DNA of 33,804 nt. Source: Escherichia phage 899. The stretch lies in sequence record PV533660.1. One strand, given 5' to 3'. Under the pieces are notes generated by a model. The model did not search any database, was not told the DNA's origin, and worked only from the letters and a program-made list of their open reading frames with translations. How positions within the stretch are numbered: position 1 is the stretch's first letter; every line of letters begins with the position of its first letter. The position numbers were made by a program, and so were the translations under genes. Shown here piece after piece: positions 6,670-10,134 of this stretch.

Positions 6670-6733
6670 TAAGTTGTATGATCTCTGGTGTGAGCTTACA
6701 TATCTATGGCACAGAGTAAAGCCTAATCTGACA

Positions 6734-6762
6734 GTCCGCTATGTGCCAGAAGCGGACGTTGC
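6734..6762. repeat. Hairpin-containing repeat, copy 1 (GTCCGCT-loop-AGCGGAC-GTTGC)
   Basis: GTCCGCT (6734-6740) and AGCGGAC (6751-6757) are reverse complements around loop ATGTGCCAGA; near-identical element recurs at 8479-8508. Confidence 0.5.
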
Positions 6763-6941
6763 GGGACGTCAGATATCTAAAAAAACTAATGGTCCGCTTG
6801 GATAGATACTTACACAGGATGCAATAAAGAGTTTCTATTTCTTTGTGGTAGCAAACTTTGATTTCTGAAGGATAATACCTCCAATAAGTTGAAATCACAT
6901 ATATCGCTAAAGACTCTATACAACAACCAAGAGAGACCGCA

Positions 6942-8327
6942 ATGGATAGTGTCAGTAGTGTTGAGCGTTTAAGAACAAAAGCTTTTTATCAGTTGCTTGT
7001 GGATAGGCTTGGAACTGAGGCCTGGGCTGCTCGCAAAGCTGCATATTTCAAGCGCATAAGAGAGAAGGAGGCTAAGTTTAACATCAATCTGCCGATAGAG
7101 CCCCAGCTCTTCATACCAGCAGAAGATGACATCGACTGGTACATTCTGGCGTCGTATCTGTCTCATGATTTTCCATATAGTGATGCTACTTACAGCAGCA
7201 GACGTATCTACCCCTATGCTATGGCCATCGGAGCTGTTGCAGACCAGCTTCGCAAAGTCCCATACGTCGATGATGTTCTGGACAAAATGCTAGCAAATAA
7301 CAATAAACCAGAAACTCAAATTTTTGAGCTGCTGACGGCATCGTTCTACCTAAAGAACGGCTATGAGGTTGCCTTCATCCCAGAAAGCAGCATTGTTTGG
7401 CCCGATGGAAAGACCAAAAAATCACCGGATATGCTCGTCAAGTTAGGTGATCTGGAGTTCTACGTCGAGTGCAAAAGGTCGGATAAGCAAACCAAGTACT
7501 CAAAGACAGAAGAGCAAGCCTGGGCCAACATCTGGCATCAATTGAGCCAACATATGCTCAAAGTCGCACCATGGAACATTGTCGATATAATTTTCCATGA
7601 GCAGGTCGCCAGTGTGACTCCGGCAGACGTTATTAAAGCGGTGAATCTAGCCATTAAAGGGGGGACGGGAAAAGCTAATGAAGGTTCAATCAGTGTGGGA
7701 ATACGAGCCATCGACAAATTAGGTCTCAGACGTCACTACAGAAAATTTTCAGTCAGAGCCAATAGCCCACAGCATGAATTGCTGGTATTTGGGGATCTAG
7801 ATAGCAATGAGAAACGAAGTATCTCGACTATCGCTCAGAGAGTTATTCGTCCTGGCACCAATAACGATATTCTCAACATTTTTGTAGAGGATGTTGCAAA
7901 GTGCGTTGGAGCTCAGTGGTGCTGCGATCATGAGATTTCTCTTGGCCTCAGATCCAAGCATTTCAAGAGCTTGCTCAATGATGGAGTCATGCAGATTCCC
8001 CCTGATCGTGCTGGCGTGGTGCATATTTGGTATGAGACTTGCGAAGGCATAGATATTGAAGAACTACGTAGGGATAAAAACATGGAGCATATCTCGGCCT
8101 ACGATGCCTCTAAAACAACCGTGTTGGGTGCTTTCCTGCATGCCGTTAATTATTACCCATTAGAGGACAACTATGAGTGGGCTGAGACTGTTCAAGACTT
8201 TGCCCGTGTCCCGGATTTGATGGGGCTCTTCCTTAGACAGCCATTGATGCTTACATCTGACTCGACGCGTGGGGTCGAAGGTGTCACACATTGGGAGCAA
8301 GATAAGACCGCAAAAAGCATGCGTTGA
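6942..8327 (+). CDS. Hypothetical cargo protein with PD-(D/E)xK-like nuclease motif
   Basis: 461-aa ORF with upstream purine-rich RBS (GAGAGA); visibly lower GC than backbone; translation contains KSPDMLVKLGDLEFYVECKR (P162-D163 ... E176-x-K178, nt 7425-7475); no P2 counterpart at this locus. Confidence 0.7.
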   Translation: MDSVSSVERLRTKAFYQLLVDRLGTEAWAARKAAYFKRIREKEAKFNINLPIEPQLFIPAEDDIDWYILASYLSHDFPYSDATYSSRRIYPYAMAIGAVADQLRKVPYVDDVLDKMLANNNKPETQIFELLTASFYLKNGYEVAFIPESSIVWPDGKTKKSPDMLVKLGDLEFYVECKRSDKQTKYSKTEEQAWANIWHQLSQHMLKVAPWNIVDIIFHEQVASVTPADVIKAVNLAIKGGTGKANEGSISVGIRAIDKLGLRRHYRKFSVRANSPQHELLVFGDLDSNEKRSISTIAQRVIRPGTNNDILNIFVEDVAKCVGAQWCCDHEISLGLRSKHFKSLLNDGVMQIPPDRAGVVHIWYETCEGIDIEELRRDKNMEHISAYDASKTTVLGAFLHAVNYYPLEDNYEWAETVQDFARVPDLMGLFLRQPLMLTSDSTRGVEGVTHWEQDKTAKSMR

Positions 8328-8437
8328 AAGTGGCTGGAATATGGCGATACTGGGAACATAACTATTCACCGCGTTTCATAACCCACTCTCGGCTGATTAA
8401 CACACGTTATCGTTGGGGGAAAGGACCAATTCCCTAC

Positions 8438-8508
8438 GTCCGCTCCTCGCTCTCAGCGGACCTTCAGCTCAGTGATATCGTCCGCTCTGTGCCATGAGCG
8501 GACGTTGC
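8438..8508. repeat. Two tandem hairpins with the same stem (GTCCGCT/AGCGGAC); second is copy 2 of the 6734-6762 repeat
   Basis: Hairpin A: GTCCGCT (8438-8444), loop CCTCGCTCTC, AGCGGAC (8455-8461). Hairpin B: CGTCCGCTC (8479-8487), loop TGTGCCAT, GAGCGGACG (8496-8504), then TTGC; shares TGTGCCA loop core and AGCGGACGTTGC with the 6734-6762 copy. Confidence 0.5.
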
Positions 8509-8606
8509 TTGCATCGATGGATCTCAATTAATAGGGTTAAAGGCTATAGCGCAATACTATCCAAAAAGGTATTTTGGGTGAAACAACAGCTATGGACACA
8601 GAATAA

Positions 8607-9653
8607 ATGAGTATATTTTCAATTGATGAGTCTGGTTACACTGGGCGAGATCTTCTTCAAAAGTCACAACCTTGGCAAGGGGCCAGCGCTGTAAAGATTA
8701 GTCATGACGATGCTCTTCATCTTATCAGACAACATTTTCCTAAACACAAAGCCCCTGAATTGAAATTTAGCTCTCTTAAAAAGCGAGATAGTTATCAAAA
8801 ACCAATTTTTACTTTGCAACAGGAACTACTTGCCAATTTTCCATGTGTTACTTGTGTTGCCGATAAACGTTTGATTCTAATTCAAATGTTTATTGAGTAT
8901 GCGGTAGAGCCTTTTTACTATGACCATGGGATAAATCTATACGAAAATGGTGGAAACGTTTCTATGGCATCAATGGCTTACTATGTCTGCCAAAGCTACT
9001 TTGGTAGAGATTTTGATAATATCCTAATATCTTTTCAAAATGCGATGCATGAGAAAACGCACACAGCAGTAAATAACCTTATTGCGAACGTTAGGGCCGT
9101 GAATTGGCGTCTATTACCGGAAGTGCTGGGGCCACTAGCTTTAGAGCATCCAGATTGTATTACGGCAATAACTAATCCAAAAATTTCTACTGATGCAGCA
9201 TTTGTTATTCTTCAAGCACTAATATCACGCACTGAATTAATGTCAGAGGGACCGTATAGCATTGAGCATGATCGTTCTAAAAATCTTTTACAATACAATG
9301 AATATCTTTCGATGCTTATCAAATGTCAGACGCCAGCCGAGTTTAAGATGTCTGAAATCGCCAGTATTAAATTCCCATTAAAGCTTGAGCATGTTCACCA
9401 AGTTGATTCAAAACTAAGCCCGGCAGTTCAATTATGTGATATTTTGATTGGTAGTGCTATAACAGGAGTGCGTCAATTATTGAATGATAAATCATTGTCA
9501 TTTTATTCTCCTTTAAAACTGTATGAAGATAACCAAATAATTCATTTTTCACCTAATTTAGATTTCGAAGGGCAGCAAAAATTCAGGCATAACGGCCAAG
9601 GTAATGAGTATATTGATTTCATTGCTGAACAATTTAATAAGTTTGGAAAGTGA
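8607..9653 (+). CDS. Hypothetical cargo protein, DUF3800-like
   Basis: 348-aa ORF, strongly AT-rich (about 30% GC on sampled lines versus about 55-60% backbone); N-terminal MSIFSIDESGYTG and C-terminal VQLCDILIGSAI motifs resemble DUF3800-family signatures as recalled. Confidence 0.65.
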   Translation: MSIFSIDESGYTGRDLLQKSQPWQGASAVKISHDDALHLIRQHFPKHKAPELKFSSLKKRDSYQKPIFTLQQELLANFPCVTCVADKRLILIQMFIEYAVEPFYYDHGINLYENGGNVSMASMAYYVCQSYFGRDFDNILISFQNAMHEKTHTAVNNLIANVRAVNWRLLPEVLGPLALEHPDCITAITNPKISTDAAFVILQALISRTELMSEGPYSIEHDRSKNLLQYNEYLSMLIKCQTPAEFKMSEIASIKFPLKLEHVHQVDSKLSPAVQLCDILIGSAITGVRQLLNDKSLSFYSPLKLYEDNQIIHFSPNLDFEGQQKFRHNGQGNEYIDFIAEQFNKFGK

Positions 9654-10007
9654 TTTCAGTGGTGGGTATCAACTCTGACACATATAAATAGTGATATGAT
9701 GACCCATGACGAATATTTACTGTTTCGTGACAATGATTCACATGCACTTATTTATTTCCCCTGTGCAATAAACTCTGACTAGAGTTGCGGACAGAGACGG
9801 CACTTAATTATCTGAGCTATAGCAACTATAGATTTCCACTAAAAGCCACTACTCTGACAGACATCTATTTGTTTAGCGATTCTGCATCCTATTCTATGCT
9901 GATTACAGTGTAAGGCCTGCTTCTCGCTCAAAGCAGACTGTCAGATTTGATAGCGTTTTGGCTATGTAAATTGTCAGTCGGGAAATAAGTGAGTACAAAT
10001 CAGGACA

Positions 10008-10034
10008 GGCGAGCGAATTGCCCGCCTTTTCTTT
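10008..10034 (+). terminator. Possible rho-independent terminator downstream of cargo island 1
   Basis: GGCGAGC-GAATT-GCCCGCC imperfect stem-loop followed by TTTTCTTT. Confidence 0.35.
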
Positions 10035-10039
10035 ACCGG

Positions 10040-10134
10040 TGGTTGTGCTGTCGATTAGCCAACCGGGACAAATAGTCTGACATCTCGGGTACAACTGAAA
10101 ATACCACTCACCCATTAACCACGGAGTTAAACGG
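10040..10134 (+). promoter_or_regulatory. Putative Ogr-dependent late promoter region upstream of FI
   Basis: TTGTGCTGTCGATTAGCCAACCGGGACA (about 10044-10070) aligns about 21/30 with TGTTGTGTCAGTGATAAGCCATCCGGGACT upstream of O (28410-28439). Confidence 0.4.

Follow-up and report, generated by a model that had tools for sequence, protein, structure and literature searches.

The stretch of DNA analysed here, referred to as the window, is the 33,804-bp genome of Escherichia phage 899 (PV533660.1), a P2-like phage of the Peduovirus group. This study is concerned with the cargo island found in it between the tail fibre assembly gene G and the tail sheath gene FI, which holds two genes, here named gene 1 and gene 2, and a family of short hairpin elements that occur at the cassette edges in two forms, L and R. 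The features of the locus are given below by their position in the window, with the genes of the island as they appear in the list of open reading frames (ORFs).

6145-6669, plus strand: gene G, tail fibre assembly, left flank of the hotspot (Pfam Caudo_TAP, E 1.1e-33)
6715-6763, plus strand: L element, consisting of the conserved flank AGTAAAGCCTAATCTGACA, the hairpin at 6734-6757 (GTCCGCT-ATGTGCCAGA-AGCGGAC) and then GTT
6761-6941, plus strand: leader and promoter region of cassette 1, which moves with gene 1 (99% identical in E. coli A30)
6942-8327, plus strand: gene 1, 461 aa, ATG start; N-terminal helical domain, central predicted PD-(D/E)xK nuclease domain (about residues 120-210), C-terminal alpha/beta domain
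8436-8508, plus strand: composite junction, consisting of an R hairpin (8438-8461), the spacer CTTCAGCTCAGTGATATC (8462-8479) and an L hairpin (8480-8503)
8509-8606, plus strand: leader of cassette 2, conserved in Proteus, Serratia and IMG/VR copies, including a small hairpin CCAAAA..TTTTGG just 5' of the ribosome-binding site
8607-9653, plus strand: gene 2, 348 aa, ATG start
9654-9914, plus strand: 3' non-coding segment of cassette 2, with about 80% conservation in the Serratia copy, no Rfam family
9915-9947, plus strand: R element, consisting of the hairpin at 9915-9938 (GCCTGCT-TCTCGCTCAA-AGCAGAC) and TGTCAGATT
10135-11325, plus strand: gene FI, tail sheath, right flank of the hotspot (Phage_sheath_1, E 1e-33)

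The alignment with P2 (NC_001895), in which the G region is 91% identical to its counterpart, shows homology up to 6760, where it ends within the L element, and then again from 9919, within the R element. In P2 this interval contains fun(Z), on the strand opposite to that of gene 1 and gene 2, and the 3.16 kb of cargo (6761-9918) therefore replaces Z/fun. The region of the pF promoter and its activator site upstream of FI, placed by this alignment at about 10038-10066, is kept. The GC content is 0.55-0.60 in the flanks, 0.44-0.50 in gene 1 and 0.36-0.38 in gene 2. A first-pass annotation made from the sequence had described two co-directional lower-GC genes without a P2 counterpart in place of Z/fun, and the ORFs, the drop in GC and the break in P2 homology are all as it stated. 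It had also called the locus a recognised variable or defence hotspot, which is documented: G-FI (Z/fun) is one of the two classical variable hotspots of P2 and is known to carry anti-phage genes (10.1101/2024.10.15.618418; PMC9122126), and seven other P2-like phages carry unrelated cargo there. As non-core DNA at G-FI with conserved P2 backbone on both sides, the island belongs to the cargo of the P2 Z/fun hotspot. It shares with P2 fun(Z), old and tin the character of low-GC, non-essential cargo, and with fun(Z) the locus. The products of gene 1 and gene 2, however, are unrelated in sequence to Fun(Z), Old and Tin, and fun(Z) is a single gene in reverse orientation, whereas here two cassettes are stacked and their function is predicted. 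Over a stretch of 3.47 kb the locus is shared, at 100% identity, with 36 complete E. coli genomes, many of which carry it at one chromosomal coordinate, and in these copies RefSeq names the products ‘hypothetical protein’ (gene 1) and ‘DUF3800 domain-containing protein’ (gene 2). Because the island is identical to prophages in these genomes, the comparison suggests that it is of recent E. coli prophage origin.

Four copies of the hairpin family are present in the phage, all at cassette edges (6734-6757 L, 8438-8461 R, 8480-8503 L and 9915-9938 R), and the two inner ones, each of 24 nt, lie in the 279-bp spacer between gene 1 and gene 2. A 29-nt repeat pattern has two matches in the phage genome, compared with 0.00 expected from shuffles. 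The R element at 9915-9947 is an inverted copy of the L element and 81% complementary to 6725-6760, and the outer flank of its hairpin is inverted with respect to the first copy. On sequence grounds, each cassette is delimited at its 5' end by an L-type hairpin and at its 3' end by an inverted R-type hairpin. The composite junction is predicted to fold into a single long, imperfect hairpin (-35.8 kcal/mol, z -5.2).

The L element also follows G in P2 and in the seven P2-like phages with unrelated cargo, and the R element precedes the pF region in most of them. The L element precedes cargo in 66 IMG/VR contigs, including contexts without gene G, and arrays with internal junctions recur among these contigs. 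The junction keeps the order R hairpin, CTTCAGCTCAG plus 7 nt, L hairpin, in a constant 42-nt register between unrelated cargo, which in IMG/VR includes a LEM-3-like GIY-YIG nuclease, DUF2971, a pPIWI-associated-nuclease-like protein and DUF4365. In a census of 5426 complete E. coli genomes, with a match at 80% coverage or more, the composite junction (66 nt) was found in 657, always in unannotated intergenic DNA. The sampled E. coli contexts (n=7) include AbiH and SIR2 in a Rac/Qin-like prophage, a NACHT gene, a reverse transcriptase with a dynamin-like protein, DUF4365 with a YiiX-like protein, and a second two-cassette array at P2 G-FI. A literature search found neither the hairpin sequences nor a prior description of them. 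Nilsson et al. 2004 (Mol Biol Evol 21:1) may already describe the flanks, and the title of that paper suggests an earlier proposal of a site-specific mechanism at this locus. As a separate observation, one IMG/VR contig (L065, 3300028952_000011) carries a hairpin-bounded cargo of three genes from +246 to +3845 relative to the L hairpin, encoding pP_pnuc_1/2 (pPIWI-associated-nuclease-like), an unannotated protein of 466 aa with the motif SPD...YVEAV, and a DUF4365 protein, which may represent an uncharacterised multi-gene system.

The 279-bp spacer with its hairpins had been read in the first-pass annotation as a sign of two independent cassettes rather than one operon, and the distribution of the two genes agrees with this. 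Among all loci fetched, both genes occur together only in four island loci that are 100% identical, while gene 1 is solitary in 12 loci and gene 2 in 20; complete E. coli genomes contain gene 1 in 42 cases and gene 2 in 36. The P2-like prophage of E. coli HCP5S3_I4 (L021) has the order G, gene 1, FI, without gene 2, and its homology to the phage covers 6083-8467 and is taken up again at 9919, the jump falling within a chimeric hairpin. Outside the P2 context, the gene 1 cassette (6738-8501, 99% identical) is found in E. coli A30 near tRNA-Phe, where it adjoins a GIY-YIG protein and a restriction endonuclease. For gene 2, the homology in Proteus lambdoid and Serratia P2-like prophages begins exactly at the L hairpin (8480), and in the Serratia copy it stops just beyond the R hairpin; the hairpins therefore travel with the cassette. 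Judged by these comparisons, gene 1 and gene 2 are independent, horizontally acquired single-gene cassettes. Were they instead one two-component system, an operon in which the nuclease and the DUF3800 protein cooperate, this would be in keeping with their adjacency, their common direction and the 100% conservation of the pair in the 36 E. coli genomes and the phage. However, the paired copies all belong to one identical lineage, the partner is absent at every diverged homologue examined (the 12 gene 1 and 20 gene 2 loci), gene 1 alone fills the G-FI hotspot in L021, and a complete cassette junction, present in full, separates the two genes, and we consider such an operon highly improbable.

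Taken singly, the hairpins have the layout of a core site for a recombinase, with 7-bp inverted arms flanking a 10-nt spacer of one of two classes (L and R). Fully compensated stems exist (GTCTGCT..AGCAGAC and GCCTGCT..AGCAGGC). Chimeric R sites, in which the cassette-type 5' arm GTCCGCT is combined with the backbone-type 3' arm AGCAGAC, resulting in a C.A mismatch, are common, and examples are found at L021 5497-5520 and in the R sites of many IMG/VR P2-like contigs. These chimeras therefore point to crossovers inside the element, in the hairpin loop or in the spacer, and pairing is not always kept. A search with the joined flanks (6600-6733 plus 9948-10134) as query yielded no empty G-FI site, and in the 1370 E. 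coli genomes having the flanks these were never closer than about 660 nt; from the genomes searched, the site appears to be swapped and never emptied.

How the cassettes are swapped may be explained in two ways. Homologous recombination, for which 25-45 nt of portable homology are available, fits the data about as well as site-specific exchange. The latter would mean that the hairpins are paired heterospecific recombination sites of an integron-like or recombinase-mediated cassette exchange (RMCE)-like system in Enterobacteriaceae, which we offer as a tentative proposal and consider doubtful. In such a system, the exchange of L with L and of R with R would move single-gene defence cassettes among prophage hotspots (P2 G-FI, P2 gpA-portal, lambdoid tail ends and Rac/Qin-like regions) and genomic islands, and the phage island would be a two-cassette array. 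A 200-aa tyrosine recombinase may catalyse the exchange. It is annotated as a ‘site-specific integrase’ (WP_001305361.1), comprises little beyond the Phage_integrase catalytic domain (E 5e-19) and is present in about 770 of the 5426 E. coli genomes. In three of the seven sampled junction contexts it lies within the hairpin-bounded segments, 1.3-2.7 kb from the junction (L112 2343-2945, L113 7047-7649 and L114 6610-7212); it is absent from the other four and from the phage, and a linkage of junction and integrase is not claimed. The only integrase in the phage genome is the P2-type Int (17010-18020), and we know of no recombinase shown to act on the hairpin junction.

The arrangement resembles integrons in several respects: single-gene cassettes are promoter-proximal, an imperfect palindromic element that can be folded into a long hairpin lies between them, and one element bounds unrelated, defence-gene-enriched cargo in many arrays. 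In contrast to integrons, the junction is not accompanied by IntI or attI, the hotspot is never empty and a site is found at both cassette ends; in addition, the junction is conserved in sequence, whereas attC conserves structure rather than sequence. An assignment as integron cassettes with attC sites was rejected, since the junction contains neither the RYYYAAC nor the GTTRRRY core and has only the long-hairpin geometry in common with attC. A role of the hairpins as classic rho-independent terminators was not supported, as they have no U-tract and many R copies contain C.A mismatches. A moron, as reportedly defined by Hendrix and colleagues, is an autonomous unit, a gene that sits between phage genes and brings its own promoter and terminator. 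The island shares with morons the low-GC extra genes between two essential late genes, each with flanking hairpins and a leader. It differs in that its hairpins are without U-tracts and did not score as terminators, and in that the hairpin sequences are common to unrelated cargo and backbones, which the moron concept does not predict.

The product of gene 1 carries a catalytic signature composed of E129 in the preceding helix, P162-D163 and E176-C177-K178, as the PD...ExK arrangement noted in the first-pass annotation had indicated. All of these residues are invariant in 26 close homologues, and E129, D163, E176, C177 and K178 are also invariant in 28 distant homologues with 19-37% identity, so that the PD-(D/E)xK signature is conserved across the family. 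The AlphaFold model is confident (pLDDT 84, pTM 0.87), its core has the alpha-beta-beta-beta-alpha-beta fold, and its top structural matches are PD-(D/E)xK nucleases. Gene 1 is therefore predicted, on the basis of fold and motif, to encode a stand-alone PD-(D/E)xK (restriction-endonuclease-like) nuclease with additional N- and C-terminal domains. The 132 close homologues (53-98% identity) are all about 460 aa long and come from Klebsiella, Pseudomonas, Aeromonas, Pantoea, Stenotrophomonas and others, and an exhaustive profile search expanded the family to 507 clusters at 50% identity, nearly all of them full-length (430-470 aa). In the N-terminal helical region and the C-terminal region of ~250 residues, numerous H, E, W and Q positions are invariant.

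Gene 1 could not be assigned to a family of Pfam, NCBIfam or PADLOC; in PHROGs it is phrog_37220, function unknown. The match to PF18743 (AHJR-like REase; residues 133-204) has 16.4 bits and an E-value of 0.0066 and thus lies below the gathering cut-off of 26.1 bits; it was obtained for one of 28 family members, the phage protein itself, and membership was rejected. The 28 distant relatives did not receive a family name from PADLOC, NCBIfam or Pfam either, the PADLOC matches being stray and weak. The N-terminal helical region had no informative match, a Foldseek comparison of the model with viral structures gave none at E<=0.001, and profile searches of PDB sequences with the family alignments of gene 1 and gene 2 returned no relevant match. 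Among PD-(D/E)xK nucleases that act in known defence systems as single proteins or effectors, Shedu SduA, Hachiman HamA, CBASS NucC and McrC have no sequence-level relation to gene 1 (no PADLOC or Pfam match); the accessory domains of gene 1 differ from theirs, and it has no helicase or cyclase partner.

Gene 2 matches PF12686 (DUF3800) with 26.3 bits (gathering cut-off 21; E 1.4e-5), with residues 6-283 spanning profile positions 4-145 of 149, and the identical RefSeq protein is annotated as DUF3800. The hallmark of this family is an N-terminal DE and a C-terminal QxxD (PMC7736814), and both are kept, as D7-E8 (in D7-E8-S9-G10) and Q275-L-C-D278; D7-E8 and Q275, L, C and D278 are invariant in 25 homologues, while more than 900 homologues were found. 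The structural match is to type 2 RNase H (RNase HII/HIII/H2A), i.e. an RNase H-like fold with acidic active-site residues, although at the sequence level gene 2 has no RNase HII match in Pfam or NCBIfam. Gene 2 is accordingly predicted from its modelled structure to encode a nuclease with an RNase H2-like catalytic core. The profile and structure searches of both proteins, with a PD-(D/E)xK fold for gene 1 and DUF3800 membership for gene 2, thus agree with what the first-pass annotation had predicted. DUF3800 is described as the effector of type VII retrons and as an accessory protein at Cas12a2/VI-F loci (PMC7736814, PMC10910872, PMC12669027), and gene 2 is similar to these in its DUF3800 membership, the DE and QxxD motifs and the RNase H2-like fold. 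Unlike them, gene 2 stands alone in its cassette, from which reverse transcriptase, msr/msd, Cas gene, TPR domain and CRISPR array are all absent. A type VII retron was rejected: neither of the two island ORFs encodes a reverse transcriptase, and neither a retron RNA (Rfam) nor a PADLOC retron match was obtained.

Eleven distinct orphan RNA motifs neighbour DUF3800 genes (PMC5737381), and gene 2 could accordingly be part of a protein-RNA system whose partner RNA derives from the non-coding DNA of its cassette (8509-8606 or 9654-9914). The cassette offers about 360 nt of such DNA, and its leader is conserved across four contexts. Against this, an Rfam scan of 6000-10500 at E<=1 gave no DUF3800-associated RNA and a chance match to Atu_C9 only, and RNAalifold on the leader from five contexts showed no convincing covariation beyond the L hairpin, with an unfavourable covariation term (+0.92) and compensatory changes in 2 of 23 predicted pairs. 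The 3' segment 9654-9914 is mostly missing from the Proteus and L032 copies and, for this reason, is probably dispensable. A protein-RNA system is therefore unlikely. In the leader, the small hairpin CCAAAA-AGGTA-TTTTGG (8562-8578), which lies ~30 nt 5' of the start codon of gene 2, recurs in each of the five cassette copies compared and may be a translational or transcriptional control element.

The neighbourhood of the homologues is rich in defence genes. Diverged gene 1 homologues in P. aeruginosa, Pseudomonas and Aeromonas are solitary genes: in a P. aeruginosa island the neighbours are Lamassu LmuB (LmuB_C) and AbiTii, in a Pseudomonas island a patatin, an ABC-type ATPase and a ubiquitin-like system (Multi_ubiq/ThiF/BubE), and on Aeromonas conjugative DNA the homologue adjoins HipA. 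Gene 2 homologues with 84-96% identity occupy the gpA-portal hotspot in Serratia prophages, follow the tail fibre in Proteus lambdoid prophages and gpU in a further P2-like contig, or adjoin an AAA_11/12-REase helicase; on a small plasmid of E. coli, a homologue with 61% identity neighbours a NACHT protein. The strongest indirect argument for defence cargo is the company of defence genes that the hairpin junction keeps in E. coli.

Taken together, we consider it reasonably probable that the cargo consists of two independent, stacked, hairpin-bounded nuclease cassettes whose genes protect the lysogen against other phages, an anti-phage role that we infer for both genes from context and fold. 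As lysogenic-conversion genes, they would shield the lysogen as follows: the gene 1 product would cut invader or cellular DNA after its accessory domains sense infection, the gene 2 product would cut RNA:DNA hybrids or other structured nucleic acid from phage replication, and the cassettes would be swapped in and out through recombination at the conserved hairpin elements. In the comparison with catalogued defence systems, suggested in the first-pass annotation, neither protein had a meaningful match to an anti-phage system in PADLOC-DB 2.0.0; gene 1 had no match there, and gene 2 had only a 33-residue match to the candidate PDC-M04A (E 7e-4). Several further points also weigh against a lysogen-protecting role. 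A consensus scan, which weak promoters could escape, revealed no sigma-70 promoter upstream of gene 1 or gene 2, no terminator was called for either gene, the hairpins having no T-run, and the C-terminal ~250 residues of gene 1 gave no informative structural match. No structured non-coding RNA partner of gene 2 was detected (Rfam; leader covariation), although such partners are frequent for DUF3800 (PMC5737381). In addition, both genes run with the late operons, unlike P2 fun(Z), and may therefore be expressed during lytic growth to the phage's own benefit.

Such a benefit would consist in host takeover, counter-defence or processing of the phage's own nucleic acids during lytic growth, or the nucleases might have no fitness role. 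Besides the direction of transcription, the lack of a called terminator-like site 3' of G would suit this explanation, and cargo unrelated to defence, including toxins, partition systems and tail-fibre swaps, is also carried in phage hotspots (PMC9122126; 10.1101/2024.10.15.618418). It is nevertheless unlikely, given that close homologues occur in chromosomal defence islands, on integrative and conjugative element or plasmid DNA and on a small plasmid, all without a phage lytic programme, and that the neighbours are overwhelmingly defence-type genes. The nucleases could also be selfish or addiction elements, either a toxic nuclease that stabilises its cassette or a homing-type endonuclease that furthers its own spread. 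This we regard as very unlikely: according to the ORF list, no antitoxin or immunity ORF is present inside either cassette, and hairpin-bounded cassettes hold many non-nuclease cargos (SIR2, NACHT, AbiH, dynamin-like), and mobility is therefore independent of a cargo nuclease. Both genes are thus plausible predicted anti-phage genes outside any catalogued system.

The two cassettes provide two compact single-gene candidates for anti-phage defence. Gene 1 founds an unnamed family of about 500 clusters of PD-(D/E)xK proteins with accessory domains. To our knowledge, DUF3800 has so far been described only as an accessory of retrons or CRISPR and as the partner of orphan non-coding RNA motifs; if the prediction is true, gene 2 would give a stand-alone DUF3800 (RNase H2-like) protein a biological role for the first time. 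The finding most worth following is the portable cassette-border element, as the hairpin borders provide a sequence handle for defence-rich cassette arrays in about 12% of complete E. coli genomes and make fast, clean cargo swapping at phage hotspots directly testable.

The other P2 hotspot of the window, between gpA (20482-22800) and the portal gene (25537-26571), contains a second low-GC island at 22979-25183, and the hairpin elements are absent at both of its flanks. One product of this island is an Rv2179c-like 3'-5' exoribonuclease (E 7e-57). Another, a 547-aa HipA-like kinase/HIRAN fusion, matches the A and B halves of the PADLOC candidate system PDC-M03 (E 1e-30 to 4e-31).

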